From Terriglobia bacterium (GTDB lineage Bacteria; Acidobacteriota; Terriglobia; Versatilivoradales; Versatilivoraceae), in assembly GCA_951813285.1 (NCBI GenBank), contig OX638355.1, positions 2,373,136 to 2,437,135 on the forward strand: a DNA stretch of 64,000 bases. The letters run 5' to 3'. The position numbers and the translations under genes are program-made. Of the stretch, positions 4,035-25,713 are shown in pieces. Below the pieces are notes generated by a model. It saw only the letters and a list, made by a program, of their open reading frames with translations. It did no database searches and was not told where the DNA came from. Every line of letters starts with the position of its first letter. Position 1 is the first letter of the stretch.

Positions 4035-4130
4035 CATTTGCTGCCGCCGCCTACGCGGCTCGACACCCATAGGCGACGTTTCCCATGGGCTGACGCCCAC
4101 GGCTAAGTGCTGCCGCGGCTACGCCGCTCT
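4035..4130. repeat. Dispersed GC-rich repeat family Q ('cgccgcctacgcggct...gggctgacgcccacggctaagtgctgccgcggctacgccgct'). Other copies at 5855-5945 (+), 6090-6175 (-) and 63855-63950 (-).
   Basis: Four copies recognised by eye. The reverse complement of 6090-6175 aligns almost base-for-base with 4040-4130. Confidence 0.7.
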
Positions 4131-6175: not shown

Positions 6176-6179
6176 ATAG

Positions 6180-6900
6180 AAAACTTGTAACTGCTCATTA
6201 TAATAGACCTACTGTGGTTTGTCCTGTTGTAATCCCCTCATTATATCCCTCTAATTGAACGGGAATCCACTGGACTATTCAGGACGTTGGTGGACAGTAA
6301 CTGTTCGGTCAAGCCGTGGAAGAACGGTCAGTCGTCATCCTCCCCACAGCGATCAAGCCACATTGCATCGGTGTCGCCGCTGAGCCACCAACGCAGCGGC
6401 TGGACCACCCCCCGGACAGGCCAGCCGAGGGTGCTCGCCAGCCGCGAAACCCCTCTACACAGCTGGCGAACCGACCCTATCGTTCCGACACCACGGGTCT
6501 CATCTCCGCTCTCTGCCCCCAGTCCCGATGGAGGTGGAAGGGGGACGCTTCGTCGGTTGCTCGGTCGGCATAAAGGACAAACCCGGAGGAGGTCGACCCC
6601 ACGGCTTGACCGAACGGTTACGGTGGACAGGTCTTACGATGTTGCAACCCCCGAGACTCTGCGTCCGAGACCGTCGAGCGGGGTGGTAGGCTGCCCCTGG
6701 GTTCGGATCGGAGATATTGGGTTGTGAGCCTCCTCCAGCCTTGCCCTTCTCGGCCTCTGGGCCATTTGTGGTCTTCGGTTCTTCGAGGGACTCATCGACG
6801 AGGGCGCGCAGCCAGGAGCCGACGTTGAAGTGCCGCTGGATGCCGAGGCGCTGGAGACCTTGACGGGTTTCGGGAGAGACGGGGATATGAAGTGGAACAT
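6180..6900. repeat. Degenerate paralogous copy of the segment 27480-27800 (3' end of a small gene plus its downstream region), interrupted by a ~340-bp insertion at 6300-6640.
   Basis: 6240-6300 and 6640-6790 align with 27505-27720. Both share 'ggatcggagatattgggtt...cctccagccttgccc...ggccatttgtggtc'. Confidence 0.55.
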
Positions 6901-7014
6901 GGTGCAACAAAAAGGCACACAACAACACATAGAGCAACAAACAGGTTACAAAGCTACACAAAGCCACACGGAGTAGACACTCCTCCTCCATGAGCGCGAA
7001 AGCGCGCCTGGAGG

Positions 7015-7560
7015 CCTTCCCGCAAGGGATCACTGTGGAGGGAGCGACCCCCAAAAGGGGAGGGGAGGTGGTGGATTTTGGCGTGCACCACCTCCCCCTG
7101 CCCGGTGCCGCACCAGCGGTCAAAAAGGGGGGGTCGCTCCCTCCACTTCCTCCCCCTCTCGTGCGGTGCGGCGAGGCGCCGTGCGAGGCGGGGGACACGC
7201 AGGCCGACGCCCTACGGCGCTTTACCGCAGAGGACTCGGGCAATCCGTGCCAACCCGCGTCCAATGCGGATTTCCAAGAATAGCCTCGACCACAACGGCG
7301 AGGGGTGCGCCCTCTGATAGTGCAGATTTGTAATTGTCAAAATCGTGCACCACCTGCCTGCGCCACCCCCCATTTGTAACCGTGTCACCCATACGACGCC
7401 ACGTCCTTGACCCCCAGAGGCGGAAATCGTCAATCATTCCACGACCGTTGGAGGCCGGGTTTTTCTGTTCCCATTGGTCGATCTTCTCCACAATAACATC
7501 GAGGCCGCCATGGCGTTCGACGGCGTCCCGACCGGCATCACCGATCGCCTGCCGGAGCCC
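7015..7560. repeat. Left arm of a large inverted repeat. S-element (7015-7290) plus a partial inverted copy of the 'solo-CRISPR-repeat element' (7300-7560, lacking the CRISPR repeat itself). Right arm at 10920-11445.
   Basis: 7120-7285 equals the reverse complement of 11180-11350 ('caaaaagggggggtcgctc...ctctcgtgcgg...'). RC of 7300-7440 aligns with 11040-11200 ('ggaatgat[c/t]gacg..ttc.gcctctgggggtcaag'). Confidence 0.7.
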
Positions 7561-8296
7561 CACTGCTCGTGTCGCGACCGTTGCCGTGTCTCGGGATGCC
7601 CAAGCCTGGAGAACACGCTTGTTACGGTCGAGATGGTGCTGGTCCCAAGCGACCGCAAATACTTCGACAGTCCGGCTTGCATTGCAACCGGCCGGTTGAG
7701 TATGGTGGGTCTTATCTGTCGAAGAAATCGTCGAAGAAATCGGGAGCGGTACAAGGCCAACTTTCGAGACCATTCCTGATGAGTCCACAGCATGCTTTCG
7801 TAAACGCCCACGCCGTTGTCACTGTCGGGCCGGTAGTGTGCTGTAATATCTGGAATCAGCGCCTACGATGGGTTGCCGAACCTTGATAAGGTGAGGCACC
7901 CACGCGGAGAGTACGTCAAAGGGGCAACGTACACTAATGGCGTAGAGAGCTTCTGGGCGCTGCTGAAGCGGGTATACTACGGGACCTACCACTACTGGAG
8001 CAAGAAGCACCTGCCACGTTAATTGGAGGAATTTAGTCAGAGAAGCAACATGCGTCCACTAAACATCATTGACCAAACGGCTAAGGTGTTCCATGGGATT
8101 GGGGGGTCGGAGTTTGACTTGGAGGGAGTTGGTGGGGCGACTTGAGTACTGATTGTTGTGTGGATAGATCGAAGCTCTGCCAGAATCCTCTCTACGTCTT
8201 TCCACACCCACCAGAAAATCAAGAAAAACAAAACGCTTAGACTGAGACTGATAGGCGAAACAACAATGTCGCAAACAATTCCGGGTTCTTCCTCCA

Positions 8297-8958: not shown

Positions 8959-10445
8959 GAGCCTTTTGCAAAATTCGGAATCGGGCATGACATTGGGCTG
9001 GCAACAGTGATGTTCCGGCGGTGACAACCCAGCTGCAAAGACCCTTTTGAAGGAAAAAGCCCGAATCTGATGGCCGGATGGCCAGCGGTCGCCGGACGCA
9101 GGCACAGCTTACCCGCTCCCGGCCTTGAGGCGGGCGAACCTGCTGTGCGGTTGGGGGTGGCAACCCGGTTTTCAGAGCGTCAGGCGCATCAACTGATCCA
9201 CCGTCAGGGCCAGAATGCCGAACATCAGGTGGCACCTCACCTTGTCGGGGCCGCGAACCCTCACCTGCCTCCCGCCAAACTCCTCCTTGAGCCGTCCGTT
9301 GACCCGCTCCACCGTCGAGCGTTCCCGGTAGCGCCGCGCCTCGGGAGTCACTTGGCCGATACAGCGCCGGGCCAGTGCCTCCCGCTTCCGCTCGGCTTTC
9401 AAGGCAGCTCTTCGGCGGGGGTTGACGTCAATAATCGGCACATGCCCCAGCTTCTCACTGAAGGCCCGGATCTCCGGCGCATCGTAGGCGCTGTCCATCA
9501 AGTCGTAGAGACTCTCGACCCGCCTTGCCGTCAGCGTCGCCAGCGGGATGGCTGCCTGAGAGTCATGCACCGAGGCCGAGGTCAGCAGACAACTGACCGG
9601 AATCCCGCCGTCAATGGCGTCGAGGTGCAGCTTGTAGCCGGTCCAGCTCTCCTGATGCCCCTTGGCGTTGCGCTTGACGCCGATGTCGCAGGCCTTGGGC
9701 AACTCCTTCAACATTTCCTCCAGCGTCATCGACCCCTGCCGCTCCAGCCGGCTCAACCGCTTGGGCCGTCGTTCGCCCTTCGGCGGCCGGCCCCGCCGGC
9801 GCTTCCGCTTGGCCTCCGGGGCAGCCTTGGCCGCTGGCTTTTCCCGTCCCGCAATCGCCGTCGAGTCCCTCGACACATGCCCCGCCAAGTGGCCCTTCAG
9901 CGTCTCCTCCAGCAATGCCTCGTGCAAACGCCCCGGCAGGTCGCTCTCAGCGAATTCCGCAAAGGCCCGCGAGAAGGTCGACTCGCTCGGCACCTCCCAC
10001 GCCCTCTCCCAGCCGCACAGCCGCCGCAGCCTCCCCTCACTCCTCAGCCGCTCCACCAAACCCCGCGTGGTCTCCACCTCCAGCATCGACTTCGCCAGAT
10101 AGGCCCGCGCCAGCACTGCCCGATCCTCCAGCGGCCGGCCACGCCAGCCCCGACTGTAAGGCAGCAACTCCTCCACCCGCACCAACTCCAATACCTGCAC
10201 CAGCCGCTGGTAACGCTCTCCCAGAGGCCCCAAAACCTCCTCCAGCAGGGGAAACAGCTCTCGTTGAAACCGGAACCAGTGTCGTGATAGGGTTTCCCTA
10301 AGGGGCAAGTTCCACCTCCGTTCATCATGTGGTTCAGACACCTTCATGATACAACAGACAGTGGTCTTGCCCCTCCTTCCACCTGCCCTCCTTGATCTTT
10401 CCCCCCGTGAAAATTCCCGCTATCTGCGAATTTTGCAAAAGGCTC
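8959..10445 (-). mobile_element. Insertion sequence (~1.49 kb) with terminal inverted repeats 'GAGCCTTTTGCAAAATTCG', carrying an IS4/IS5-type (DDE_Tnp_1) transposase.
   Basis: TIRs at 8959-8977 and 10427-10445 (reverse complement). The same TIR sequence recurs at 38051, 38332 and 51067. Confidence 0.75.
9172..10347 (-). CDS. DDE transposase (IS4/IS5 superfamily, DDE_Tnp_1-like).
   Basis: 391-aa ORF. C-terminal 'STVERVNGRLKEEFGGRQVRVRGPDKVRCHLMFGILALTVDQL' is typical of IS4/IS5 transposases. It lies between the TIRs. Confidence 0.8.
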   Translation of the reverse strand: MKVSEPHDERRWNLPLRETLSRHWFRFQRELFPLLEEVLGPLGERYQRLVQVLELVRVEELLPYSRGWRGRPLEDRAVLARAYLAKSMLEVETTRGLVERLRSEGRLRRLCGWERAWEVPSESTFSRAFAEFAESDLPGRLHEALLEETLKGHLAGHVSRDSTAIAGREKPAAKAAPEAKRKRRRGRPPKGERRPKRLSRLERQGSMTLEEMLKELPKACDIGVKRNAKGHQESWTGYKLHLDAIDGGIPVSCLLTSASVHDSQAAIPLATLTARRVESLYDLMDSAYDAPEIRAFSEKLGHVPIIDVNPRRRAALKAERKREALARRCIGQVTPEARRYRERSTVERVNGRLKEEFGGRQVRVRGPDKVRCHLMFGILALTVDQLMRLTL

Positions 10446-11007: not shown

Positions 11008-12106
11008 AGCACAAAACAGGCTCTCCCCATGACGCTGGAATGATCGACGCTTTCTGCCTCTGGGGGTCAAGCAGATGCCGTCAGATGGGTGTCACTCTTT
11101 CAGAAGGGGGGGTGACATGGAAGGGTGACATGATTTTGACAACCACAACGCTTATCTCTCAGAGGGCGGAGCCCACGCCACTGTGGTCGGGACTTTCCCG
11201 AAATGCCGCATCAGACGCGGGACGACACGGATTCCTCGCGACCGTTGCGGAAAAGCAAAGCGAGGCTGCGCCTCGCGTGTCCCCCTCGCCCAGCGCAACG
11301 GCGCGCCGCACGAGAGGGGTGCTGGTGGTGAGAGCGACCCCCCCTTTTTGGCCGCTGGTGCGGCACGGGGGAGGGAAAAGGGTGACAGGGAAAACGACAC
11401 CCTTTCCCCCCCTTGCGGGGAGGTCGCTCTCACCACAGTGATCCCTGCGGACTTTATCTGCCATTGATGTAACGCACTTTATACAAAGGACTTATGGATT
11501 TCAAGACGGTGTCCTGCCCCACATTATGCCCCTAGAAAAAAACGGATTCCCCTGGCTCTTCTTGGCCGTATAGGGAGTAACGGTTCGGTCAGGCAGTGAT
11601 GGCTTGGACCCGGACGAGGTTGGAGGTGCCTGCAATCGCAGGCGATCCGCCGGTTCTGCTCGCTACGCCTCCCCCGGACGGCGGATAGACTCCACGGGTT
11701 GGCCGAACAGTTACTTGCGGACACCTCAGTTGAGTATCAACCCTGAGTCTCGGAGTCTGGATCCGTCAAGAGGATCCGCCAAGTGGATCCTGAGCCCGCC
11801 ATGCGATATCCATAGCCAATGCAGTGCCAGCGGTTCGGTCCATACTATTTTTGATCACCGGCCCTTCCTACCACCTACGGACCCGCGGCGCGCTACGGTC
11901 GCCTTATCGGTTCCCTTCGCGCCCCTAGGTCCCCCGTTTCTTCCTCTGGACATAGCGTGATCCTCCCGTCCGATAGCTTCTGCTATAGTTTTTCAAATCA
12001 CTGTCCGAAGAAATCGTGGGGCAGGGAAATCTTTCAAATACAATCTGGATATTCCATCAGTTAATGGAATATCTGTGCTTAAATGGGACCTCTCAAAACA
12101 TCTGTC

Positions 12107-12158
12107 TATTCTGACTCTTAATCAGCAGGTTCGGAGTTCGATTCCCTGGCGGCTCACT
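12107..12158 (+). pseudogene. 3' fragment of a tRNA-Lys(CUU)-like gene (anticodon arm, T-arm, acceptor 3' strand). The 5' half is absent. Probable integration-site (att) remnant.
   Basis: Anticodon stem-loop ctga/cTCTTaa/tcag gives anticodon CTT. T-loop is TTCGATT. No complementary acceptor 5' strand or D-arm lies upstream. Confidence 0.5.
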
Positions 12159-12189
12159 ACCATCCTTTAATGCGAACGGAGAGTCGTAT

Positions 12190-15100
12190 ATGAAATCTAT
12201 GTTTGTCCAGGCTGTCGGGCTCTTCGAGGCCGCTCGGACCGAGGCTGACGTGCGTGACAAACTGAAGCTACTCGAGCAGGCAGAAGCCGTCTTCCAGAAA
12301 ATCATTGATCGAAATCCGTCCGCCGACCGTACGGTCACCGAGAGTGAGGCCGCCCGATCAGCTTATGTCTCTGTCATCTCGCAAGCGCTTGTTATTGCAC
12401 AGACGATCATTGACGAGGGAGTGTTCGAGAAGAACGAGAAAGGTGTTCAGGTGCTGGTGGGTATTGCCGAGGCACAAGCACGGTCGGGAGACGACATTGG
12501 TTCTCAAGAGAGTCTCTCCAATGCACTCGCCGTAGCGCGAACCATCAGCAATGGACCCCGATTGCTGGCGGACATTGCAGAAGCGCAAGCACGGTCTGGC
12601 GACCGTGTCAGTGCTCTGGAGAACTTCGCCCAAGCGGTTGTGTTGGCGCAGGCAAGAGGAGAGAAAAGGGAGGAATTTTCGAAGGAATCAGGCATCAACG
12701 GAAGTTATAGAGAGGACTACGTCAACCAACTGGCTTACATTGCCGAGGCGCAGGCACGGTTGGGGGATCGCACTTGTGCCCAAGAGAGTTTCTCGAAGGC
12801 ATTCGGGGTGTTGCAAACGATCACTTCGGAGTCGGAACGGATCAAGCTGCTGGCTCAAATCACCGCGGCACAAAACCGAGCGCTGCTGCACGTCGGTGAA
12901 GAGGACGGCAATGTCCAGGCGGTCGTGGCGGCGCGAACGATCACCAACGAATGGCGGAAGGCCGCAATACTGGGTCCAATGTGGTTGAATCCGTTTAGTC
13001 GAGGTTCACAAAATGACGACATCGAGGCTAACAAACAAATCCTTGCATTGATGGGCGTGGCCGCAAAGCAACGAGCGCAGACCAGGGACATAATGGAGGC
13101 GCTTGAGCGAATGAGTGCCGACAAATGGGAACGGGTCCGGGTGCTTGGGGCCATTGGCGAGGGACAAGCTCGGGCGGGGAACCACACTGCCGCCAAAGAG
13201 AGCTTTTCCCAAGCATATACAGTCGCACGAAGGCTCACGCATAGAGGGTGGTTATGGTTCCTGACGATCGGCGTCTTCCTGGCGAAGTTGATGATCATCA
13301 AGATACTCCGATACGAAGGGTGGGAGGCTCGAACGTTAGCGGAAATTTCTGAGGTTCAAGCCCAGTCACTGGTTCGCCTTGTCGGCGCAGAAGCCGAGTC
13401 CGGTGACATTCCACGTATGCCAGCTGTCGAGCAAACGATTAGACACGACAGAGGGTGGCGTGCCTGTGCGATAACTCGCAACCTGCAGAGTATGGTTGTT
13501 GGCTCCAAGGAGTTCTCCGACAGAGAGGGGAAAGCCGGGGCAATGGCCGATCTATCTTTAGCGCAGGTTCGGGCGGGGGATCTGTCGGGCGCACAAGAAA
13601 CCATTACCTATGCGCTGAAGCTGGCACGAAGGATTCGTAACGAAGGCAAGCGGGCCTGGGTTCTCGGCCGAATCGCCGAGGGACAGGCTCGGGCGGGGGA
13701 TCTGTCGGGAGCACGAGACACCACCCAGCAAGCGCTGGCCCTTGCGCAGCTGATAAGCATTCAGAAACTACGGGCGGGTATGTTCGTCGTTATCATCAAG
13801 GCGCGTATTGAGGCGGGGGATTTTGAGCAGGCGGTCGAGATTGCTTCAACAATCGATGATCAAGACATGCGGGATGGGGCGCTGGCGGAAGTCGCCAAGA
13901 CACAAGCCGAGACTGGGGATATCGCACAGGCACTTGAGGTCGCCCGTACGATTGACAGTGAAGATGTTCGGGATGGCGTGTTGGCTGAAATCGCCAAGGT
14001 ACAAGCCCAAGCCGGTGCCATTGCGCAGGCGTTTACACTTACGAAGACAATCACCGACAAGGAACAAAAGATCCGAGGTCTGTCGGCCGTTGCTGAGGAA
14101 TTGGCCAAGTTGGATAACACTACGGACCTAAGGGAACTCACCCAACCACTTGCCGCCAAGGAGCAGCAGGTTGGGAGGCTAGCCATTTTGGCAACTGGTC
14201 TCGCGGCTGCTTGGTCGACTTATGAGTGTGTCATCGACCAGGCGCTCACGCTAGTGCTTAAAGGGCTTGAGTCAAGTTTCCATGCAAAGGATTACGTCAC
14301 ATGCTTGGTCGATATCGCCAAGCTCCAGGCCCAAGCGGGCGACTTCACCGGAGCTCGGAAGAGTTTCTCCCAAGCATTCACTGCGGCGCAGGCTCTCCCC
14401 GAAGAGGACCACTATGAAGGATGGAGTCGCCGTGGACTGCTCTGCGACATCGCCAAAGAACAGGCCGGTGCCGGAAACGTAGAGCAGGCCCTGGCGCTGG
14501 TGCAGATGGTCACCCCTCAAGAGGAACGAGTCAGACCGATGATCGACATCGCCAAGGAGCAAGCCGAGGCAGGGGATCGCACAGGTGCTCAAGAGACTCT
14601 TTCGCAAGCGCAAGAGCTCGCCCAAACGATCACCCACCAACGGTACCGGGACTGGGTACTGGCCAATGTTGCCGAGACGCAAGCCGCGACAGGGGGCATT
14701 GCACAGTCGCAGACGGTCGGCCGAACGATCACCGACGAAAACAGTCGGAACCGCGTGCTGGCAAATGTCGCTGTAGCCCAAGCCAAGGCTCAAGTCCGGA
14801 AGGGTGACCGCGCCGGTGCCCGGGAGATCTTCTCGCAAGTGGTCGCGGAAGCGCAGAAGCTCCCAGAGATGGACGATTATGGGAAGAGTCGCTACGAGGT
14901 GCTCGGCGACATCGCCAAAGAACAGGCCCGCACCGGGGACGTAGAACAGGCCCTGGCAGTGGCGCAGACGATCACCATTGTAAACAGAAGGGACTGGGTA
15001 CTGGCCGACATTGCCGAGACGCAAGCCGCGACAGGGGGCATTGCGCAAGCGCAGACGGTCGGCCGAACGATCACCGACGAAAACAGTCGGAACCGCGTGC

Positions 15101-15735
15101 GGGTAAATGTCGCTGTAGCCCAAGCCAAGGCTCAAGCCCGGAAGGGTGACCGCGCCGGTGCCCAGGAGATCTTCTCGCAAGCGGTCGCGGAAGCGCAGAA
15201 GCTCCCAGAGTTGGATATTGGAGTAGGGGCTCGCAATGGTGCATTGGCCGACATTGCCAACGCGCAAGCCGAGACGGGGGGCGTTGAGCTGGCGGTCGAT
15301 GTCGCACAGACGATTACCGACAAGGAATTCGGCGAGTGCGTATTGGCTGACATTGCCAACGCGCAAGCTAGAACAGGGGGTATTGCACGAGCGCAGAAGG
15401 TTGCGCAGATGATCACCGACGAAGACAGTCGAAACTGGGTGCTGGCGAACATCGCTGTGGCCGAAGCTAAGGGATACGCACAGACAGGAGATCGCACCAG
15501 GGCTCGAAGGAGTGTCTCCCAAGCGGTCACACTGGCAGAGAGAGTCGCCGATAGGGTGGTCCAGGACTCACTACGGGCGAGAATCGCCCAGGCGCAAGCG
15601 GAAACAAGAGACTTTGCACATGCGTTCGCGCTCGCACAGATGATAGACAGCGATAGGACAAAATCCTTTGTGCTGGCGGCTATTGCCAAGGAACAACTAA
15701 TAAACTCAGGACTGCAAGTCAGGACTGCAAGTTAG
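12190..15735 (+). CDS. Giant (1181 aa) tandem-repeat protein (~36-40-aa alpha-helical repeats with the pattern '..R..VLA.IA.AQA..GD...A.E.FSQA...A..I..'), TPR/HEAT-like alpha-solenoid with no signal peptide.
   Basis: The repeat is visible throughout the translation. GGAG RBS lies 8 nt upstream. A near-identical internal duplication is present (14640-14840 versus 14995-15190). Confidence 0.7.
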   Translation: MKSMFVQAVGLFEAARTEADVRDKLKLLEQAEAVFQKIIDRNPSADRTVTESEAARSAYVSVISQALVIAQTIIDEGVFEKNEKGVQVLVGIAEAQARSGDDIGSQESLSNALAVARTISNGPRLLADIAEAQARSGDRVSALENFAQAVVLAQARGEKREEFSKESGINGSYREDYVNQLAYIAEAQARLGDRTCAQESFSKAFGVLQTITSESERIKLLAQITAAQNRALLHVGEEDGNVQAVVAARTITNEWRKAAILGPMWLNPFSRGSQNDDIEANKQILALMGVAAKQRAQTRDIMEALERMSADKWERVRVLGAIGEGQARAGNHTAAKESFSQAYTVARRLTHRGWLWFLTIGVFLAKLMIIKILRYEGWEARTLAEISEVQAQSLVRLVGAEAESGDIPRMPAVEQTIRHDRGWRACAITRNLQSMVVGSKEFSDREGKAGAMADLSLAQVRAGDLSGAQETITYALKLARRIRNEGKRAWVLGRIAEGQARAGDLSGARDTTQQALALAQLISIQKLRAGMFVVIIKARIEAGDFEQAVEIASTIDDQDMRDGALAEVAKTQAETGDIAQALEVARTIDSEDVRDGVLAEIAKVQAQAGAIAQAFTLTKTITDKEQKIRGLSAVAEELAKLDNTTDLRELTQPLAAKEQQVGRLAILATGLAAAWSTYECVIDQALTLVLKGLESSFHAKDYVTCLVDIAKLQAQAGDFTGARKSFSQAFTAAQALPEEDHYEGWSRRGLLCDIAKEQAGAGNVEQALALVQMVTPQEERVRPMIDIAKEQAEAGDRTGAQETLSQAQELAQTITHQRYRDWVLANVAETQAATGGIAQSQTVGRTITDENSRNRVLANVAVAQAKAQVRKGDRAGAREIFSQVVAEAQKLPEMDDYGKSRYEVLGDIAKEQARTGDVEQALAVAQTITIVNRRDWVLADIAETQAATGGIAQAQTVGRTITDENSRNRVRVNVAVAQAKAQARKGDRAGAQEIFSQAVAEAQKLPELDIGVGARNGALADIANAQAETGGVELAVDVAQTITDKEFGECVLADIANAQARTGGIARAQKVAQMITDEDSRNWVLANIAVAEAKGYAQTGDRTRARRSVSQAVTLAERVADRVVQDSLRARIAQAQAETRDFAHAFALAQMIDSDRTKSFVLAAIAKEQLINSGLQVRTAS

Positions 15736-16744
15736 GTAAGCAAGGCTGCGACAACGAGCGGCTGTCAATCATTTGGGTTCGTAGTGCTGGATATTAACCT
15801 CATTTCCCAAGGGCACGCATGTGTAAAGCATTGAATCAAGTCTAGCAGGGCGACCTCTCCAGGGGCCGGCCAGGGCAAGAGGCAGGTCATGCTGCTCGGG
15901 AAATTTAGGCGTTCGTTGAAAAGCAGAAACGACTCGCAAATCTGGATTGCAAACGCACGAGACCGCCAGCACATTCTGAAAATCTTAAAAGCTGTTCCGA
16001 AAAACTTCGAGCGAACAGATCCCCCTTATGCTGTTGTAGCGGCAGACGGTACAGTAGTAACCATTGGATATTGGACGCGAAAAATTCACCGTCGTTGAAA
16101 GGAGCCAGCGGTTATGTGTGGCAATGCCTATCCAACGGAGCGAGGCCGGAATTGACCCGTGCTCATTGACCGAGTTTTCGGGTGCGGACCAAGAGGTGGT
16201 CGGCGGGCTGCTGGACGACCTCGGTGCCGGTCGCGGATCAGGATTTGCCGCTTCTGTCCCGGACGGTGATGGTGAGGCCAGCGAGGTTCTAAGCCAAGGC
16301 ATTGGGATTGGTACCTGCATGGAAGCGTGCCCAGAAGCCATCGCGGAAGCGCGCAGACCTCAAGCCTTCGAGGGGAGCAGATGCTGGCAGTGGGGTGGCG
16401 GCGATGGCCTTGGATCTGCACTTCCTGGACCGTCCTGGTGGAGGCTTGAGTTCTGGGTAGCGGGCGACAAAGGGGAACCTCCCAGGAAGTGACCTTCCTC
16501 CGGCGAGCCATCGGTGATGCCGATCGGGACACCGTCGAACGCCATGGCGCGGCCTTGATCCAGTAACGGGGAAGACCCTCCAGTCGGAGGTGGAAAGGGT
16601 GGCCTCGGCCGTGGCAGGATTGATCGACGATTTCCGCCTCTGGAGGTCAGGGCGGTGTAGAAAGACCAACGCGCCGCCCGCAACCATGGCGACCAGTCCA
16701 CACCCCTTCGACCACCCTCCGAGGGTGTGATAGCATCCTTGACC

Positions 16745-17500
16745 ATGACAAACGACAGCGCCCTGTTTCCGGTCGTCTCCGAAAGATGGGGCTTCGGCAT
16801 GTCGCCTCCAAAGCCAGCAGTCCAAGAGAGTCGCCGCGCCGCGTCTGAGTGTACTCTACGGATCTTGGAACACAAGAGTACGGCACCCAACGTTGATCCT
16901 CTAGTGATGGAATCCCTGAGTGTAGTCAAGGGCTTGTTCAATAGGATCGTGCGAGAGGATCAGTGGGATTGGTTTACCGTTGCCGGCCAACTCGGATATC
17001 CGTCTCGACGGATATCGCGCGTTATCGCTCAGGAGCTTTCTCATCTCCGTACTGCCATCAAATTGGGACACAAGACGACATACGAGACAACGAAAACCAA
17101 CCTACGTCGTCTTCCAAGCCGGCGTTGTCTCTCTGTACTTCTCGGAACAGCTAAGATAGTGGATGAACCTGGTGCTGGTTGGATCTACATTCTGTCGACG
17201 CGCGAAATGCGGAACCTCTTGAAAGTTGGGATGACAACTCGTTCAGTAGAGGAACGGGTCAAGGAGATCAACGCTGCAACAGGCGTAGCGATACCGTTTG
17301 GCGTAAGGCGATGCTGGAGGGTGTCCGACCCTTCTCTTGCGGAAGGGCTGGTCCACGACGCCCTGAGGGAGCATCGGCTGCGACAGGACCGAGAGTTCTT
17401 TCAAGTGTCATTCAAATACGCAGGCAAAGTCGTAGACGCTGTGATTCGCGAGAGTTCGCAGGAAATACGGACACTCGACGCCTTGGCCGGATTGGCATAG
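16745..17500 (+). CDS. T5orf172-domain (GIY-YIG-like) protein with an N-terminal domain of unknown function.
   Basis: C-terminal 'GWIYILSTREMRNLLKVGMTTRSVEERVKEINAATGVAIPFGV...REFFQV' fits the T5orf172/MUG113 family. ATG at 16745; the track ORF starts at GTG 16727. Confidence 0.7.
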   Translation: MTNDSALFPVVSERWGFGMSPPKPAVQESRRAASECTLRILEHKSTAPNVDPLVMESLSVVKGLFNRIVREDQWDWFTVAGQLGYPSRRISRVIAQELSHLRTAIKLGHKTTYETTKTNLRRLPSRRCLSVLLGTAKIVDEPGAGWIYILSTREMRNLLKVGMTTRSVEERVKEINAATGVAIPFGVRRCWRVSDPSLAEGLVHDALREHRLRQDREFFQVSFKYAGKVVDAVIRESSQEIRTLDALAGLA

Positions 17501-17654
17501 AGAATTAAGAGTGCAGGTTGGAACGAATACTTACTTATGTCGTCGCTTGTCTCGACAGCGAACACTACGACCGTTGGGCGTTGCTTGGCGATGAGGTCTT
17601 GACGTGACTGTTCAAAATTAAAAGGCACGGACGGGGTCTGCCGGCTGTGCCGTC

Positions 17655-18275
17655 CTAGTAAACGATAAGGCCGCGCGCGCCGCGTGAGAAGTGCGTTGTC
17701 ATATCCCAGAATCTGCCAAAGGTGTCTAGCTCCGAATAGGTCACTCCGTCCATACCGGGAAAACTGTTTGTTGCGAATTGACCCATTTGGATAAGTGGCG
17801 CTTCAACGGGGTCAGAAAGAATAGTCACGCTTTGGGGAAGAACATAGGCATTGTGCTGGCGATTTCGCCGGATTGTGCCGTCCTTCTTTGTCGGCGCGGG
17901 CAGTGTAGGTAGGCCTGAGACGTCGAGGAGCCAGGTCTCTTTCAATAGATTCGTGGATCTCCTCAGTTCCTGCGTATTACCAACTAGGGGAAAGGCATAA
18001 AACACTGAGCGCATTGCACCTCCTGCTAGGCCGCGCAAGGCGAGCAGTTGGTCATGGTCTAGCTGGAACTTGCGCTCTCCGCTCCGGAGACGATGGTTCG
18101 ATGCTTTAAACTGAAAAAGGAGAAGCCTACCGCCGAGCTTCGCACAGGTATCGAATCCCATGCGTGCTTCCTGACGCTGTGTTAGCCCAAACCAGATCAA
18201 ACGCGCACGTGGAAACACGGCGGTGTGCACCTGCGCGCAGATATTGAGTTCAAGTGTCTTTTCCGAAAGCTTCAT
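17655..18275 (-). CDS. Hypothetical protein, possible PD-(D/E)xK nuclease fold (motif 'GFD...LFQFK'), convergent with the T5orf172 gene.
   Basis: 206-aa ORF in lower-GC DNA. The fold assignment rests on the motif only. Confidence 0.4.
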   Translation of the reverse strand: MKLSEKTLELNICAQVHTAVFPRARLIWFGLTQRQEARMGFDTCAKLGGRLLLFQFKASNHRLRSGERKFQLDHDQLLALRGLAGGAMRSVFYAFPLVGNTQELRRSTNLLKETWLLDVSGLPTLPAPTKKDGTIRRNRQHNAYVLPQSVTILSDPVEAPLIQMGQFATNSFPGMDGVTYSELDTFGRFWDMTTHFSRGARGLIVY

Positions 18276-18514
18276 TCCCTAGACCCGCGATTCTGCTCCA
18301 CCCAGCTTACCGCTGCGATCTGCTGTTTCATCGCTCTAGCTGTGTTGTTCGCGCTTTGTGTAGGCTGGATTGATCCTTCCTTGCCTGCCTCGCTTGTTTC
18401 GATTGTCGTTGCCAGAACGTCCTCCTTCTCCACCTGGTTCCGCTTGGGGATGTCGTCTGTCATATGGCGCACGCTAACGGCTTTTTTTTATCAGGACGGC
18501 GTCCCGCGCTTCAC

Positions 18515-18895
18515 CTAGCTGTTCAAGTGAATACGGAAATAGGTCATACTCCGAATCGGTATGCCATCCTTCTCGTACCTTCCGAACGACCACCTGTCGG
18601 AATGATTCATCGCCGCCTCCCAGACGAACAACCCGAAGCAGAGCCCGGCAGCGACCGTGTCGTACTGGCATGCGTTTGCGTAGACCGGCTCCCAGACCGT
18701 ACCCGTCCAGTCACTCCCCGGCATCCAGCCAGCCGTGTGAATTTCGTCACCCGCTATCATGCGTTGAAGCTCGATACGGATCGTCCGCAACTGGATAGGA
18801 GAAAGTCGCGAACACCATGCGTCAAACTCGGACTGATGGGGGATGTGTGTGATCTTGTGGTGTTCGCCGTGATTGTCGATCGAATAGAGTGCCAT
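18515..18895 (-). CDS. Hypothetical small protein (126 aa), same strand and operon-like spacing with 17655-18275.
   Basis: ORF only; no recognisable motif. Confidence 0.3.
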   Translation of the reverse strand: MALYSIDNHGEHHKITHIPHQSEFDAWCSRLSPIQLRTIRIELQRMIAGDEIHTAGWMPGSDWTGTVWEPVYANACQYDTVAAGLCFGLFVWEAAMNHSDRWSFGRYEKDGIPIRSMTYFRIHLNS

Positions 18896-19194
18896 CGTCT
18901 GAGGTTATAATAGGAATCAGCGGTGGTGCCCGTGCTCTACAGACACACCCATCTTAGATCAACAACCGTCTTGGAATCCACCGACACCCTTGTTGCGAGC
19001 CACCTTCGTCCGCACCTACGCCTGGATGGCCCTGACACTGCCTCAGACAAGCCGAGCGCGGAGCACTCGAATTGCCCGGGAATCGTCTTGGAACGACGGC
19101 TCCGCCAATACAATGACGGTGAGGTCTTATATGATGCCCTCATCAGGAACATGCTTCGCGGTCACCGTTCCATGCGGGGTGTGATCAATTCCGC

Positions 19195-19345
19195 GCCGTC
19201 GGCCTCAGGTAACACGCCCAATCGTCCATCAGGACATGCTGGCGCTTGAACAGGTCCGAGCAGGCATAGGCCGCGTCGACCTGGTTCCGGACTGCATGCG
19301 CCTGGACCGCCTCGATCACCTCCCGGAGATGGTCTGTCTTCAGCC
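19195..19345 (-). pseudogene. Orphan 3' fragment of a tyrosine-integrase gene, encoding '...IPEWLKTDHLREVIEAVQAHAVRNQVDAAYACSDLFKRQHVLMDDWACYL', directly abutting a solo CRISPR-repeat element.
   Basis: About 75% nucleotide identity to the 3' end of the integrase gene at 20517-20650. The translation matches the integrase C-terminus 'DHPREVIEAALAHVVRNRVEAAYARSDLFERRRVLMDDWARYL'. Confidence 0.65.
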
Positions 19346-19367
19346 ATTCGGGAATAGTGGTCACGGT

Positions 19368-19397
19368 CCTGTTCCCCGCAGACCCGGGGATGAACCG
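19368..19397 (+). repeat. Second solitary type I-E-like CRISPR repeat 'CCTGTTCCCCGCAGACCCGGGGATGAACCG', within repeat-element copy 2 (19320-19600).
   Basis: Same architecture as 10978-11007, with the compensatory pair substitution g/c giving CCCCGCa/GACCCGGGG. The flanks are ~80% identical to copy 1. Confidence 0.6.
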
Positions 19398-20314
19398 GAG
19401 CAGGAAACAGGCACACCGAATGACTGTTGAATGGTCGACGAATTGCGCCTCTGGGGGTCACGCAGATGCCGTCAGATGGGTCGCCACCCTTCCGACGGGG
19501 GGTGGCGGTCTAACATGGCGGCGATCCTGCTACACACAACGCCTTTCTCTCAGAGGGCGAAGCCCCTAGCCGTTGTGGTTGGGGATGCAGGTTGGCGAAG
19601 CCAGCTTCGAGTTTGGAGTCGACGCCCAGCGGCTCAAGAGTCCGGCTTACGGCGGTACGGACCACGGCGCCTTGGCCCGACTCACCGCGAGCTGGTAGCA
19701 GACACGCGAATCCAGTGGCGGCAATGGAACGCGCGACGGCTATGGAAAGTGCCGCCCCTGCTGGAAACCCGGTCTGACTGCGCTCGGGTTCCCGCAACTT
19801 CCCGCAGCCCCGTCGGCGGGTTGACCAGGAACGATGAACCTGCAGGGCGGGTTCCGGTTACCTTGTCAAAGCGATCCTTCAACCTGCTGTGGTTCCCCGG
19901 CCGTCCGGCAACCGGTTGGGAATCCAGTTGGCATGTCTCGATCAAGGCCCCGGCCGATCCGGACAGGGCACTGGCCCGATCGTTGAGGCGTGGGCAACCG
20001 TCTTCAGGCCGGGCGCGTTTCCATGGCCGGCCCATACGGTCCACCGGCATCCGATGTCGTCCATAAGTATCTGAATAATAGTCACTTGACCCCAACCAGG
20101 GCTTTGACTCATCCGATCCCGACTCGATACCATTGCTGAAGTTTCCACAGCCTGGGAGAGGTGGAGGAGGAGGTTGTGAGGGGACCTCACCGTCCGAGAT
20201 CGGGACCCGACATGCGGTCGCGTTCCCCGGAAGAGGAGGGGGCGGATCCAGGCGCGCTTCTTGTTGCGAGACGGGTGCTCAGCCGGAGCACGGCACGCTC
20301 CGTGAGACAGGGGA

Positions 20315-20455: not shown

Positions 20456-21710
20456 TCACCCTGGCCTGCACGGGGCGAAGTCCCGTTGCTGGGCTTGGCG
20501 CGGGCACCCGATCCCTGGGGCCAAGTAACGCGCCCAGTCGTCCATCAGGACACGCCTGCGCTCGAATAGGTCGGAGCGGGCATAGGCCGCCTCGACCCGG
20601 TTGCGGACCACATGCGCCAGGGCCGCCTCGATCACCTCTCGGGGATGGTCGGTCTCCTCGGCCGCCCAGTCCCGAAAGCTGGATCGGAACCCGTGCGGCA
20701 CGGCTGCAATCCCCTGCTCGCGGACCAGCCACCGCAGCTCCTTGTCATTGAGCGGTTTCCCTTGCCCACGGCTGAACACCAGAGGACCGTCGCCGAGGGT
20801 CCGTGCCGCCTCGAGAATCTCCAGGGCGCGTCGGCACAGCGGCACCCGGTGCTGGCGGTTAGCCTTCATCCGCTTGGCCGGGACGGTCCATACACCAGCG
20901 TCTCGATCGATCTCCGCCCACTCGGCCCACCGGACCTCACTCCACCTGGCCTCCGTCAGCACCAGGAACTACGAAGGCCAGCTTGGCCACCTCCGGCGCC
21001 GTCGCTGCCTGCACCGTCCGGATAGCCGCAAGCACCTCCCGATGCGGCAAAGCCTGCATGTGCTCGGTAACGTCCTGTTGGAGACCCAGGACCGGGCCGA
21101 TCCTGTCGCAGGGGTTGTCAATGCGGAACTCCATGGCTACGGCCCATTCCAGGATCGCCCGCAGGCGCTGGCGCACTCGCCGGGCGCTGGACGGCTTCCG
21201 GTGCCAGATGGGGGTGAGGACCTCAAGCACGTCGGCGCTCGTAACCTCAGAGACCGGCATCTTGCCGATGCGCGGGAAGGCGAACCGCCTCAGGCTCGAC
21301 ATCCACTCGCGATGGTGACGCCGGCCGCGCCAGCCGCCCCGCTTCTGCTCCAGCACACGCATGGCGGCTTCGGCGAAGGTGGGGATGCCCTCGGTGCGGC
21401 GTTTCTCGGCAAGGGGATCTCCGCCCTGGCGGGCGAGCTTGCGGTTGGCCAGGGCTTTCTCCCTGGCCTCTGCCAGGGGGACCAAGGCGACGCTGCCGAG
21501 ACCGAGCTCACGGCGACGGCCACGGACGACGAGGCGTTGAATCCAACTGCGGGTTCCGCTGGGTTGGACGAAGAGGTACAATCCGTTTCCATCGGCGTAT
21601 CTTCCGGGCGGAGCGGAGCGCAGGAAGGCGGCCGAAAGGGCGTTGCTGGGGTGGCGGCCGGTGGGCTTGGTCTTAGGTCGGACCGGAGCGAAGTCCGTTA
21701 CAGCATCCAT
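20456..21710 (-). pseudogene. int: P4-type tyrosine integrase (N-terminal DUF4102 arm-binding, SAM-like and catalytic domains), split by a frameshift at ~20955 into ORFs 20937-21710 and 20456-20962.
   Basis: N-terminal 'GLYLFVQPSGTRSWIQR' (DUF4102) and C-terminal 'VPHGFRSSFRDWAAE' (HxxR box). The expected 'FLVLTEARWSEV' reads in the +1 frame immediately after a TAG. Confidence 0.8.
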
Positions 21711-22173: not shown

Positions 22174-22923
22174 CTATCGGTAGGATGATTCCAGGTTGGA
22201 ATAGACCAGTCGGCCGGCCGAATCCCGGTAGCTGACGATATCCGGTTTGACTCCGCCGGCGGTTGTGTCCGGCAGGTCTTGGCCATAAAGCCGGCTGATC
22301 TTGTGGACGTAGTCCCGAGTCTCTCGGTAGGGGGGAATGCCGTCATGCTTGCGGACGGCATTTTCGCCCGCGTTGTAAGCCGCCAGCACCAGGGAAAGGT
22401 TGCCGGGAAACCGATTCTGCAGGAACTTGAGGTAGCGTATTCCTCCCTCGATGTTTTGGGCGGGATCGTATGCGTCAGCCACGCCGAACCGCTTGGCGGT
22501 CGCCGGCAGCAACTGCATGACTCCCAGGGCTCCCCTGGGGGAAATTGCTGTTGGATTATAGTTCGACTCCACCCTGGCCACCGCCCTGACCAGCTCAGGA
22601 TCCATCCCGTGCTTTCGGGCGATGCGATCGATGAGTCGTCCGATCCCGGCAGGAGGCTGCCCCCTTCGGCGAGTCCTCGGTGGCGGGCTCGGCTCGGGCA
22701 GTGTGGGAGAACTGGCCGGGGCTATGGCAATGTTTCGAGTATTGGAAAATATGCGGTGTCCGTCGGGTCCGGTGAAGCTGTCGATCTCCCCGCCGATCGA
22801 GGTCGGGCACACGACCAGGGTGAACAGGCAACCGGCCGAAGCCATGTATCGGTTAAGGTTCCAACCGGGAGTGTTGATTTTCGTGGGGGTAACCATGGGA
22901 ACGGGAGCTGAATGATGGGGCAA
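22174..22923 (-). CDS. Lytic transglycosylase (SLT domain).
   Basis: 'MDPELVRAVARVESNYNPTAISPRGALGVMQLLPATA...LAAYNAGENAV' is the SLT catalytic region. Confidence 0.8.
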   Translation of the reverse strand: MPHHSAPVPMVTPTKINTPGWNLNRYMASAGCLFTLVVCPTSIGGEIDSFTGPDGHRIFSNTRNIAIAPASSPTLPEPSPPPRTRRRGQPPAGIGRLIDRIARKHGMDPELVRAVARVESNYNPTAISPRGALGVMQLLPATAKRFGVADAYDPAQNIEGGIRYLKFLQNRFPGNLSLVLAAYNAGENAVRKHDGIPPYRETRDYVHKISRLYGQDLPDTTAGGVKPDIVSYRDSAGRLVYSNLESSYR

Positions 22924-23061: not shown

Positions 23062-25713
23062 TCAACCCGCCCCTTGGACATGCCTCTCGACGTAGTCGGC
23101 GACCGCCTCCAGCGCCAGGGGTAATTTGCTCGGGTCCCTGCCTCCGGCTTCAGCCAGGTCCGGTCTGCCGCCGCCGCCCCCGCCGACCACCGAGGCGATT
23201 TCCTTGACCATCCTGCCCGCGTGGAGACGGGGAGTCAGATCGGAGGTAATGGCCGCGACCAGGGAGACTTTGCCGGAACCCGAAGTGGCCAGCACCACCA
23301 CGCCCCGGCCGATCCGAGACTTCAGCTCGTCAGCCAGATTGCGGAGCGAGGCATTGTCTAGCTGATCCACCACAGAAGTCAAGACCTTGATGTCATTTAC
23401 GTTCTTGGCGGTATGCAGCAGTTGTCCGGCCCGGTCCTGGGCCAGGCGGTAGCGCATTGCCCGCAATTCCTTCTCCAAAGACCTGATGGAGGCCTGGTAC
23501 TTGCGGACCGACCCCACCAGCTCGGGCCGAGTGCCTTTGAAAAGCCCCTCCAACTGGCTGAGCAGTGCCTCGTCCTCGCGAAAGCGGCGGAGCGCCCCGG
23601 TGCCCGTTATGGCTTCGATACGGCGGACCCCTGCGGCGATCCCACTCTCGCTGACGATCTTGAACAATCCGATGTCGCCGGTGCGGGAGACGTGGGTGCC
23701 GCCGCAAAGCTCCTTGCTGAAGCCATCCACCGACACCACCCTCACCTGTTCTCCGTACTTCTCTCCGAAGAGAGCCATGGCTCCTTCCGACACCGCCTGG
23801 CTCAATTCCTGAACCAGCGTGGTGACGGACAGGTTGTCCATGACCTTGCGGTTCACCAGGTCCTCGATCTCGATGAGGTCCTCCGGCGAAAGGGCCGCAT
23901 AGTGGGTGAAGTCGAAGCGCAAGCGATCGGGAGCCACCAGGGAGCCGGACTGTTTGACGTGAAATCCGACCAGTCGGTGGAGGGCGGCATGGAGCAAGTG
24001 AGTGGCCGTGTGGTTTTTCCTGATGGAATCGCGGCGGATCGGGTCCACCCTGGCCTCGACCCTTTCCCCCACTCGCAGGGCTCCCCCTGCGCACCTGACC
24101 CGGTGAGCGGAATAGCCGGGAGGAGCCGGATAGGTATCCTGCACGACGGCCTCGGCCTCGGCGCCCTGCAAGACCCCGGTGTCTCCGATTTGGCCTCCCG
24201 TTTCCGCATAGAAGGGCGTCTGGTCCAGGAAGATCTCTCCCACCTCTCCGGCCTGCAGCCAGTCGGTCTGCTTGCCCTCGATCAGGATTCCCGTGACGGT
24301 CGACTGGTCGGTGCCAAGCCGGGTATAGCCGAGAAATCGGGTCTTCTTGGCGGTGGGCGGCGGCGCCGAGCCGGCAGCGGTGGCCGTTTCCTTCCAACTG
24401 GCCCGCCCCCTCTCGCGCTGGGCCGACAGCCGCCGGTTGAAGCCTTCTTCGTCCAGCATCAGTCCATTTTCGTCCGCGATCTCCTGCATCAGGTCCAGGG
24501 GCAGGCCGTAGGTGTCATAGAACTTGAACATGACCTCGCCCGGCAGCCGGCGCGGTTGGCTCCCGGAGGGTTGCAGTCGAGACAGCACGTCGCCGAGCTG
24601 GTCCAATGCGATCCGCAGCGTGGACGAGAACCGCTGCTCTTCGTGGCGCACCACCCTGGACACGTAATCCCGGGTGGAGGCCAGCTCCGGATAGGCGTCC
24701 TGCATGAGATCCGCCACCCTGTCGGCCATCCGGTGCAGAAACTCGTCCTGGATTCCGATGAGCCTTCCGTGCCGTATGCCGCGGCGCATGATTTTTCGCA
24801 GGACATAGCCACGGCCGTCATTGTCGGGCACCACCCCGTCGCTGACGAGGAAAGCCGTCGCCCTGGCATGGTCGGCGATCACCCGCATGGAAACGTCGGC
24901 GGCCCTGTCGTCGCCGTAGTCCCGTCCGGCTATTTCGGCTGCGAATTGCGTCAACGGCTTCAGCAGGTCCGTGTCGTAGTTGCTGTACTTGCCCTGGAGC
25001 ACCGCTGTCATTCGCTCCAGGCCCATGCCGGTGTCTACCGAGGGCTTGGGTAGGCGAACCAGTTGACCCGATTTCTGCCGGTCGAACTCCATGAACACCA
25101 GGTTCCAGATTTCGACAAAGCGGCCGCACTCGCAGGGAAAACTGCATTGCGTATGTCCGGCCTCGCTGCCGGCCGGCCCCTGGTCGAAGTGCATCTCGGA
25201 ACAGGGACCGCAGGGACCGGTGTCTCCCATGGCCCAGAAGTTGTCCTTCTCTCCCAGTCGAAAGATGCGGTCGGCCGGAACCCCGATCTCTCGGTTCCAG
25301 ATCCGGTGGGCGTCGTCATCGTCCCGGTAGACCGTAATCCAGAGTTGCTCCGGCTTGAGCCCATAGACTTCGGTCACCAGTTCCCAGGCCAGCGGGATGG
25401 CTTCCGACTTGAAGTAGTCGCCGAAGGAAAAGTTCCCCAGCATTTCGAAGAAGGTGTGGTGCCGGGCGGTCTTGCCCACGTTCTCGAAGTCGTTGTGCTT
25501 TCCGCCTGCCCGAACGCATTTCTGGGAGGTGGTAGCCCGAAGGTAGTCCCGCTTCTCTCGTCCCAGGAATACGTCCTTGAACTGGTTCATGCCGGCATTG
25601 GTGAACAGCAGCGTGGGATCGCCGGCGGGGACCAGCGAGGAGCTCCTGACGATGCGGTGCCCTCTCTGTTGAAAATATTCCAGGAACTGCCTGCGGGTTT
25701 CGGTTCCGGTCAC
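23062..25713 (-). CDS. alaS: Alanine--tRNA ligase.
   Basis: 883 aa. N-terminal 'FTNAGMNQFKDVFLG' and overall AlaRS architecture. Confidence 0.95.
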   Translation of the reverse strand: MTGTETRRQFLEYFQQRGHRIVRSSSLVPAGDPTLLFTNAGMNQFKDVFLGREKRDYLRATTSQKCVRAGGKHNDFENVGKTARHHTFFEMLGNFSFGDYFKSEAIPLAWELVTEVYGLKPEQLWITVYRDDDDAHRIWNREIGVPADRIFRLGEKDNFWAMGDTGPCGPCSEMHFDQGPAGSEAGHTQCSFPCECGRFVEIWNLVFMEFDRQKSGQLVRLPKPSVDTGMGLERMTAVLQGKYSNYDTDLLKPLTQFAAEIAGRDYGDDRAADVSMRVIADHARATAFLVSDGVVPDNDGRGYVLRKIMRRGIRHGRLIGIQDEFLHRMADRVADLMQDAYPELASTRDYVSRVVRHEEQRFSSTLRIALDQLGDVLSRLQPSGSQPRRLPGEVMFKFYDTYGLPLDLMQEIADENGLMLDEEGFNRRLSAQRERGRASWKETATAAGSAPPPTAKKTRFLGYTRLGTDQSTVTGILIEGKQTDWLQAGEVGEIFLDQTPFYAETGGQIGDTGVLQGAEAEAVVQDTYPAPPGYSAHRVRCAGGALRVGERVEARVDPIRRDSIRKNHTATHLLHAALHRLVGFHVKQSGSLVAPDRLRFDFTHYAALSPEDLIEIEDLVNRKVMDNLSVTTLVQELSQAVSEGAMALFGEKYGEQVRVVSVDGFSKELCGGTHVSRTGDIGLFKIVSESGIAAGVRRIEAITGTGALRRFREDEALLSQLEGLFKGTRPELVGSVRKYQASIRSLEKELRAMRYRLAQDRAGQLLHTAKNVNDIKVLTSVVDQLDNASLRNLADELKSRIGRGVVVLATSGSGKVSLVAAITSDLTPRLHAGRMVKEIASVVGGGGGGRPDLAEAGGRDPSKLPLALEAVADYVERHVQGAG

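Follow-up and report, generated by a model that had tools for sequence, protein, structure and literature searches.

A segment of low-GC DNA in a Terriglobia bacterium (assembly GCA_951813285.1, contig OX638355.1) was analyzed within a stretch of 64,000 nucleotides (nt), hereafter the window (positions 2,373,136 to 2,437,135 of the contig). The segment, positions 16745-18895 of the window, contains three genes encoding a protein of 251 amino acids (aa) with a T5orf172 (GIY-YIG-like) domain and two proteins of 206 and 126 aa, which a preliminary description made from the letters of the sequence had proposed to be a candidate defence or addiction module. The results indicate that the region probably comprises three unrelated, individually mobile solo accessory genes that accreted in a decayed island and are not a functional unit, such that two probable nucleases and one phage gene would lie side by side by chance. 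The features on which the analysis centers are as follows.

16745..17500, plus strand: T5orf172 gene, starting at the ATG at 16745 and encoding 251 aa
17177..17440, plus strand: T5orf172 (GIY-YIG-like) nuclease domain identified with Pfam, residues 151-238 of the 257-aa form
17655..18275, minus strand: 206-aa gene of an unnamed family, stand-alone, a probable PD-(D/E)xK-type enzyme
18515..18895, minus strand: 126-aa gene of an unnamed family carried by phages and genomic islands
11817..19107: 7.3-kb block shared with two metagenome contigs, containing a TPR gene, a pseudo-open reading frame and the T5orf172, 206-aa and 126-aa genes

The gene models agree with the positions given in the preliminary description for the three open reading frames (ORFs) and with its statement that the first two are convergent, the stop codons of the T5orf172 and 206-aa genes being separated by 154 nt. 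The 206-aa and 126-aa genes have the same orientation with 239 nt between them. A GTG at 16727 is an alternative start of the T5orf172 gene that adds six residues to yield a 257-aa protein; the ATG start matches the length of close homologues (e.g. P0242, 251 aa). A word-indexed search at E≤1e-3 yielded 315 homologues of the T5orf172 protein, 151 of the 206-aa protein and 158 of the 126-aa protein, and all three ORFs are genuine, conserved genes. The GC content of 16745-18895 was 0.543 versus 0.605 for the whole window, and the GC content at third codon positions was 0.57 in both the T5orf172 and 206-aa genes versus 0.77-0.80 in large core genes such as alaS, in agreement with the earlier assignment to low-GC island DNA. 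The absence of housekeeping features, also noted earlier, is consistent with the finding that neither the 206-aa nor the 126-aa protein had a family match in Pfam, NCBIfam, PADLOC or PHROG. Scanning 42 members of each of these two families one by one against Pfam yielded zero matches.

The proposal that the T5orf172, 206-aa and 126-aa genes, or the latter two, form one cooperating defence or addiction module, such as a nuclease effector paired with a sensor or an antidote, was evaluated from the neighbourhoods of homologues. The 206-aa family was represented by 33 genome loci and three metagenome places, the T5orf172 family by 84 loci and the 126-aa family by 28. The proposal draws on the adjacency of the three genes, their low GC content, the common orientation and close spacing of the 126-aa and 206-aa genes, and the conservation of the block in the metagenome contigs L006 and L044. 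Searches with tblastn using the three window proteins found them together only in these two contigs, which share the block at nucleotide identities of 97.7% (L006) and 96.3% (L044), a range of 96-98% by blastn, with different flanks. Neither the T5orf172 nor the 126-aa protein was found by tblastn near a 206-aa homologue at any of the 34 loci other than L006; neither the 206-aa nor the 126-aa gene was present near a T5orf172-family gene at any of the 83 loci other than L044; and neither the 206-aa nor the T5orf172 gene was present at any of the 28 loci of the 126-aa family. Co-occurrence is therefore confined to DNA that is at least 96% identical. Outside of it, remoter DNA homology ends at the borders of single genes: L001 is similar (86%) only across 17651-18303, which holds just the 206-aa gene, and L010 (also 86%) only across 18449-18987, which holds just the 126-aa gene. 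The T5orf172 gene is moreover on the opposite strand, integrons mobilise the 206-aa gene alone, and the 126-aa gene is normally found in phage head modules, as described below. A single module is very improbable on these grounds, and the neighbourhood data largely refute it.

All-versus-all clustering of neighbouring ORFs revealed no recurrent neighbour of the 206-aa family other than antisense shadow ORFs. The commonest true neighbours of the T5orf172 family among its 84 loci were a SRAP-like gene (5 loci) and an integrase gene (4 loci). A conserved, adjacent and co-varying partner, as expected for a toxin-antitoxin pair, was not found for any of the three families, and the recurrent co-occurrence in unrelated genomes expected of a multi-gene defence system was not seen, the three genes occurring together only in L006 and L044. 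The preliminary description had named as counter-evidence the lack of a nuclease fold in the 206-aa protein combined with homologues in housekeeping contexts. That combination was not found; what survives is accordingly the nuclease-like or mobile character of the single genes, and not the module.

Two observations weigh against a purely fortuitous neighbourhood. Three contigs whose flanks differ contain the three genes side by side at 96-98% identity, and the block has therefore moved or persisted whole, such that a lineage-specific functional link among the three genes is conceivable. The metagenome loci are also short, with at least 1.5 kb of sequence upstream in 46 of the 84 T5orf172-family loci and downstream in 40 of the 84, and some partners could have been missed. 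As regards the surroundings of homologues elsewhere, PADLOC matched no defence model in ten neighbours of homologues except for a weak AAA match, and there is therefore no positive evidence for embedding in defence islands.

At L081/L101 and L094-L096 the SRAP-like gene (N-terminus MCNLYS...) lies no more than ∼1.5 kb from the gene of the T5orf172 family. Five of 84 loci are too few to establish a link, and some may be copies since the coordinates of L081 and L101 are identical.

Solo mobility is documented for the 206-aa family. In Rhodanobacter sp. OK091 the homologue (6001-6621 of locus L004, identical to L011; FRCH01000001.1, 876814-889434) is bracketed by attC-like repeats of 63 nt at 5920-5982 and 6621-6683. 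The locus is a chromosomal integron cassette array with at least 15 small ORFs on the same strand between attC-like repeats of ∼63 nt, the cassettes including SUKH/SMI1, glyoxalase, GFA, acetyltransferase and several unknown genes. The repeats read ..CTAAC...GTTCAAGGCGGACGGC..GCCGCCGCTTAACTCCAGCGTTAG.., with ends that fit the integron attC consensus RYYYAAC...GTTRRRY. A covariance model built from them matched 19 sites in the Rhodanobacter locus, with E-values of 1e-13 to 1e-21 in the array, and a single site in that of Lysobacter hankyongensis, where a canonical GGTCTAAC...(∼115 nt)...GTTAGGC site directly follows the stop codon of the 206-aa homologue. These results establish that, in Rhodanobacter and Lysobacter, the 206-aa family takes the form of an integron cassette with a single gene. 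Since integrons move the gene alone, it must work alone. The same covariance model detected no attC at the window copy, a regular-expression search for core sites found no attC core-site pair in window positions 15000-20000, and the window integrase is of the P4 type and not IntI, which places the window copy outside an integron.

A different repeat was observed in Alloalcanivorax xenomutans (L012), where a 69-nt palindrome, GGGGTCAGGTCTTGCGTTTTGCC...GCAAAACGCAAGACCTGACCCC, closely precedes the 206-aa homologue and is repeated between the downstream genes (5890-5958, 7234-7302, 7532-7600, 9255-9323 and 11510-11578). It may be either a repetitive extragenic palindrome-like element or a non-canonical attC. 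In L001, two 195-aa proteins (6833-8098) adjoin a 206-aa homologue of 79% identity; one has a weak HEPN match (E 0.0018) and the other a D...LQVK motif. This neighbourhood looks defence-like, yet PADLOC found no match.

The 126-aa gene has a home of its own. It is carried by 24 viral contigs of IMG/VR (L048-L071), in the head module, where it is flanked by the TerL family (18 loci) and the portal family (17 loci). The slot is between the large terminase and portal genes of HK97-type head modules (e.g. L066, 2931-8595), the identity of these neighbours being supported by PHROG matches to terminase large subunit (1.9e-186) and portal (1.9e-154). Genes for a head protease and a major head protein come next, also identified with PHROG, and a DUF1413/NikA-like gene of ∼119 aa is immediately upstream in 12 loci. 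Residues T54, W57, P59, G60, W63, G88, L89, I114, T118, Y119 and F120 are invariant in the family. The 126-aa protein had no match in GenBank phages or in PHROG. In L007 the gene directly follows an intact P4-type integrase gene, and the window copy follows an integrase remnant. The results identify the 126-aa gene as a phage accessory gene and not a partner of the 206-aa gene; the window copy would have been stranded beside the integrase remnant, away from its usual home between large terminase and portal.

The 206-aa protein is basic with an isoelectric point (pI) of 10.0 and has no membrane segment. The GFD (residues 40-42) ... FQFK (54-57) motif described earlier was borne out by an alignment of 42 homologues with 43-79% identity, in which E9, D42, Q55 and K57 are invariant. 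The first helix contains the invariant residues E5, K6, T7 and E9, the conserved stretches are WFGLTQ-x-QEA..GFD(42) and Q55-F-K57-A-S, and further invariant residues include R68, R89, D118, R136, H141 and S154. A hidden Markov model search of 1.84 billion representatives revealed 525 clusters (50% identity) in the family; among the 150 listed, all measure ∼100-290 aa, align over their entire length and lack fusions. No match to the 206-aa protein was found in PLSDB plasmids or in IMG/VR viral contigs.

The AlphaFold model of the 206-aa protein (predicted local distance difference test, pLDDT, 82.5; predicted template-modelling score 0.76) contains a helix at residues 5-20 and a strand at 52-56. 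The top Foldseek match in BFVD was a DUF4365 protein of Leptospira phage LE1 (E 0.035, probability 0.96), with template-modelling (TM) scores of 0.45/0.51 over 205 columns. The best match in the PDB was the Hjc resolvase (E 0.6), other Hjc entries scoring lower, up to E 5, and none was significant. The catalytic residues of Hjc are E12, D42, E55 and K57, a numbering that corresponds to E9, D42, Q55 and K57 of the 206-aa protein. The conserved signature and the predicted structure make a PD-(D/E)xK fold likely for the 206-aa protein, which is probably a stand-alone, Mg-dependent nuclease of this type that would use E9, D42 and Q55-x-K57. Nuclease activity and any role in defence are put forward as candidate functions.

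Several results weigh against this assignment. Residues 31-50, which include D42, were modelled as a helix with a pLDDT of ∼62, both Foldseek scores (E 0.035 and 0.6) are borderline, and a glutamine occupies the position where an acidic residue is usual. Alignment with hhalign to the Hjc sequence (checked against 1hh1) and to E. coli Mrr gave no match, the family profile had no match among PDB sequences, and Pfam assigned no nuclease family to any of the 42 members. Thus, of the earlier suggestion of a PD-(D/E)xK protein, the signature and the best structural matches to DUF4365 and Hjc were upheld, while the structural scores are borderline and the sequence and profile searches were negative. 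The alternative is that the protein is not a nuclease, that the D...QxK likeness is coincidental and that another fold or role applies, such as a binding or immunity protein, a kind of product that is common among integron cassettes and is encoded by neighbours in the Rhodanobacter array. It is consistent with the absence of significant matches to PD-(D/E)xK families at the sequence or profile level, with Foldseek E-values above 0.01 and low model confidence at the motif, and with the presence of SUKH/SMI1-type immunity genes in the same Rhodanobacter cassette array. On the other hand, the top structural matches in two independent libraries were both PD-(D/E)xK proteins, the four signature residues are invariant across the whole identity range of the alignment, and the invariance of ∼36 polar or charged positions is suggestive of an enzyme. 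A non-nuclease function is regarded as somewhat unlikely.

The presence of a GIY-YIG-type gene was confirmed by a Pfam match to T5orf172 (PF10544) that scores 55.9 bits (cut-off 20; E 6.7e-15) and spans 99 of the 101 profile positions; the MUG113 model overlaps the domain with E 1.9e-12. As the preliminary description had stated, the N-terminal half of the protein, ∼145 aa, has no Pfam assignment. An alignment (A3) of 44 family sequences showed Y148 (of GIY), R166 and E217 to be invariant, and the order of the motifs suggests that these are the GIY-YIG catalytic residues. The invariant residues of the nuclease domain are G145, W146, Y148, K160, G162, T164, R166, E174, H204 and D215-R-E217-F-F, with K160-x-G162 at the YIG position; those of the N-terminal half are Q73-W-D, G84, P86, R102, P124 and C128. 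The stretch W15-G-F-G-M-A-P-P-K23 is near-invariant at the extreme N-terminus (residues 1-23, window 16745-16815). It falls in a part that AlphaFold leaves disordered (pLDDT <50) and has the appearance of a short linear interaction motif that is shared across phyla.

In the AlphaFold2 model of the T5orf172 protein (pLDDT 84.1), residues 1-16 are disordered, six helices extend over ∼24-133, and residues 145-236 form a beta-beta-alpha-beta-alpha-beta-alpha domain with core strands at 145-152, 158-164 and 185-193 and core helices at 168-178 and 196-206, mostly with pLDDT >80. Foldseek found no significant match of the whole chain in the PDB, and the N-domain fold matched only generic helical bundles there (E≥0.036). 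The helices at 76-82 and 88-107 have the sequence FTVAGQLGYPSRRISRVIAQ, and residues 76-100 are suggestive of a helix-turn-helix-like element that may bind nucleic acid. The protein is basic (pI 9.85) and lacks a hydrophobic segment, the top Kyte-Doolittle mean over 19 residues being 0.87, indicative of a soluble protein. Full-length homologues of ∼245-255 aa with 55-60% identity occur in Myxococcota (Sorangium), Acidobacteriota (Terriglobales) and Alphaproteobacteria (Pseudolabrys), and remoter homologues (35-45%) in many metagenomes and one viral contig, the only full-length relative among 2.9 million viral contigs searched. The most likely mechanism would be that of a protein acting alone, in which the N-domain selects or gates the target and the C-terminal domain cuts DNA; its putative role is that of a selfish or anti-invader nuclease encoded by one gene. 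Cleavage of DNA, its binding by the N-domain and a role in defence are predicted functions.

Screening against PADLOC gave domain-level matches for the T5orf172 protein and none for the 206-aa and 126-aa proteins. The best match was PDC-S57 (E 8.4e-23), and PD-Lambda-1 (SNIPE) matched residues 150-244 with E 7.8e-5. These similarities bear on the explanation that the T5orf172 and 206-aa genes are independent single-gene anti-phage systems, streamlined nucleases like those of integron cassettes. SNIPE is a demonstrated GIY-YIG defence nuclease (PMC13190303), the 206-aa gene is an integron cassette and integrons reportedly serve as stores of compact defence genes (bioRxiv 10.1101/2024.07.02.601686), and both proteins are basic with invariant residues of catalytic type. 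Conversely, the PADLOC matches are limited to the shared domain, that to PDC-S57 covering only profile positions 5-96 of 212; zero tested neighbours matched PADLOC defence models; and a soluble, unanchored GIY-YIG nuclease would need some other control of self versus non-self. It is plausible that each of the two nuclease-like genes acts in defence by itself, but the explanation is on balance doubtful. A fuller proposal is more tentative still: the 206-aa family would be a self-sufficient PD-(D/E)xK-like cassette effector against phages or plasmids, and the T5orf172 family, with its near-invariant disordered WGFGMAPPKP motif, a second single-gene immune nuclease with a new helical N-domain that senses an invader component and releases the GIY-YIG domain.

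A further explanation would make the T5orf172 gene a homing endonuclease gene that stands free, or a domesticated derivative such as a CapR-like regulator, and not a defence gene. The two-part layout is that of phage T5orf172 endonucleases (PMC10448857), and the gene is located among insertion sequence (IS) elements. However, Pfam detected no CapR, DUF723 or DUF4397 Zn-finger domain in the protein, the 84 loci revealed no conserved neighbour or target gene, and the whole protein is unusually conserved, with its 55-60% identity across phyla, unlike fast-evolving homing genes. The single full-length relative among the viral contigs also argues against homing, which is considered distinctly improbable.

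The region hosting the three genes is a decayed integrative island that abuts the core genes SLT and alaS. Island contents span ∼4 kb to 21.7 kb of the window, and the content is ordinary for an island. The other features are listed below.

4222-5544, plus strand: DDE_Tnp_1/DUF772 (IS5-type) transposase gene of the island
9172-10347: DDE_Tnp_1/DUF772 (IS5-type) transposase gene of the island
12190..15735, plus strand: TPR-repeat protein of 1181 aa, left part of the shared block
15889..16489, plus strand: frameshifted remnant of a 200-aa ORF, found with tblastn in two frames (15889-16086 and 16082-16489)
18272..18472, minus strand: ORF of 66 aa that overlaps the 206-aa gene at its start, a doubtful gene
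19185..19364, minus strand: C-terminal fragment of a tyrosine integrase
20456..21710, minus strand: P4-type integrase pseudogene in two frames
22174-22923: SLT transglycosylase, core gene to the right of the island
23062-25713: alaS, core gene to the right of the island

The integrase pseudogene consists of an N-terminal part at 20937-21710 with Arm-DNA-bind_3 and Phage_int_M domains and a catalytic part at 20456-20962 with a Phage_integrase domain, all identified with Pfam. The translation of 19185-19364 resembles the C-terminus of the product of 20456-20962, and its DNA resembles the integrase region of L006. No transfer RNA or transfer-messenger RNA gene that could mark the integration site was found within the window. 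The TPR protein had sub-threshold Pfam matches to TPR_12 and TPR_MalT, and the PADLOC STAND_TPR model matched its repeats only (E 1e-5). Its gene has internal repeats of ∼540 nt with 77-78% identity (e.g. 14648-15189 versus 14990-15528), detected through cross-matches to L044 and L006. The Rfam motif Acido-Lenti-1 RNA occurs twice on the plus strand, at 4083-4128 (49 bits) and 5896-5941 (44.6 bits; gathering score 37). Since the two copies bracket the transposase ORF at 4222-5544 (plus strand), the motif may be an IS terminal element and not a free-standing small RNA. Its presence is also suggestive of a host in the Acidobacteriota or Lentisphaerota.

Two ORFs were considered as partners and rejected. 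The 66-aa ORF, as an antitoxin-like partner of the 206-aa gene, was dismissed because its conservation is limited to the near-identical contigs L006 and L044. The ORFs upstream of the 206-aa homologues in L003 and L004 are unrelated to it except for the last ∼9 codons, which fall in a conserved stretch of 28 nt preceding the 206-aa start. The 200-aa ORF, encoding a Gly/Ala-rich product upstream of the T5orf172 gene, is intact in L044 (7148-7750) and split by a frameshift in the window and L006. It has no relatives at other T5orf172 loci, the genes of ∼200 aa at this position in L044, L045 and L046 are mutually unrelated, and the window copy is frameshifted; a partner role was rejected for these reasons.

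The probable origin of an apparent three-gene system as a chance neighbourhood warns against deducing function from the proximity of genes in a single genome. The analysis also provides defined contexts for three conserved families that have no Pfam, NCBIfam or PHROG model: a nuclease-like, single-domain family of integron cassettes, a widespread soluble T5orf172 protein with a new N-domain, and a phage gene in the slot that separates terminase from portal. Should one of the nuclease-like genes be a one-gene defence system, it would be an addition to the catalogue of compact immune genes, and in the case of the T5orf172 protein the question would arise as to how a soluble GIY-YIG nuclease spares host DNA.

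Among known systems, SNIPE has been shown experimentally to be a GIY-YIG defence nuclease (PMC13190303, Nature 2026). It resembles the T5orf172 protein in being the product of a single gene with a C-terminal GIY-YIG-type nuclease and a catalytic glutamate, E414 in SNIPE (PMC13190303); dependence on the glutamate has also been reported for T5orf172 proteins (PMC10448857). An upstream, non-catalytic domain of SNIPE is thought to bind DNA, similar to the layout presumed for the T5orf172 protein. SNIPE is, however, a protein of ∼490 aa that contains DUF4041 and is anchored by an N-terminal transmembrane segment, whereas the window protein of 251 aa has neither feature; the N-domain of the latter is a helical bundle unrelated to that of SNIPE, and the PADLOC match to PD-Lambda-1 is limited to profile positions 355-454 of 496. 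SNIPE requires both the membrane anchor and DUF4041 and is toxic when the anchor is missing (PMC13190303). PDC-S57, of which a literature search found no mention, is likewise a single-gene candidate with a T5orf172 domain. That domain is N-terminal in PDC-S57 and C-terminal in the window protein, and the remainders of the two do not align.

Homing endonucleases with a T5orf172 domain occur in ICP1-like, T5-like and other phages, with one DNA-binding end and one nuclease end, and CapR of the ICP1/PLE system is a domesticated relative (PMC10448857). The window protein resembles them in having the nuclease at one terminus, a presumed DNA-binding part at the other and an association with mobile DNA. 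The phage genes encode CapR, DUF723 or DUF4397 Zn-fingers and are located beside essential phage genes (PMC10448857), whereas the window gene is chromosomal, conserved over its full length across phyla and not beside essential phage genes.

The 206-aa protein is comparable to DUF4365 and Hjc proteins in the arrangement of an N-terminal helix with a glutamate, followed by an aspartate and then by (acidic/Q)-x-Lys on a strand. It differs in having ∼90 additional C-terminal residues with invariant R136, H141 and S154 of their own, a glutamine at the middle catalytic position and no sequence or profile similarity. DUF4365 is described as the nuclease domain of SPARDA short-Argonaute effectors (PMC10810196); the 206-aa protein stands alone, unfused to APAZ or other domains. 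Sedentary chromosomal integrons have been reported to contain many small single-gene defence cassettes, including ones with nuclease domains such as a DUF4365-containing system (bioRxiv 10.1101/2024.07.02.601686). Although the window gene is outside an integron and a defence role of the family is putative, the 206-aa family resembles these cassettes in being a small, nuclease-like, promoterless-looking one-gene cassette with an attC site.

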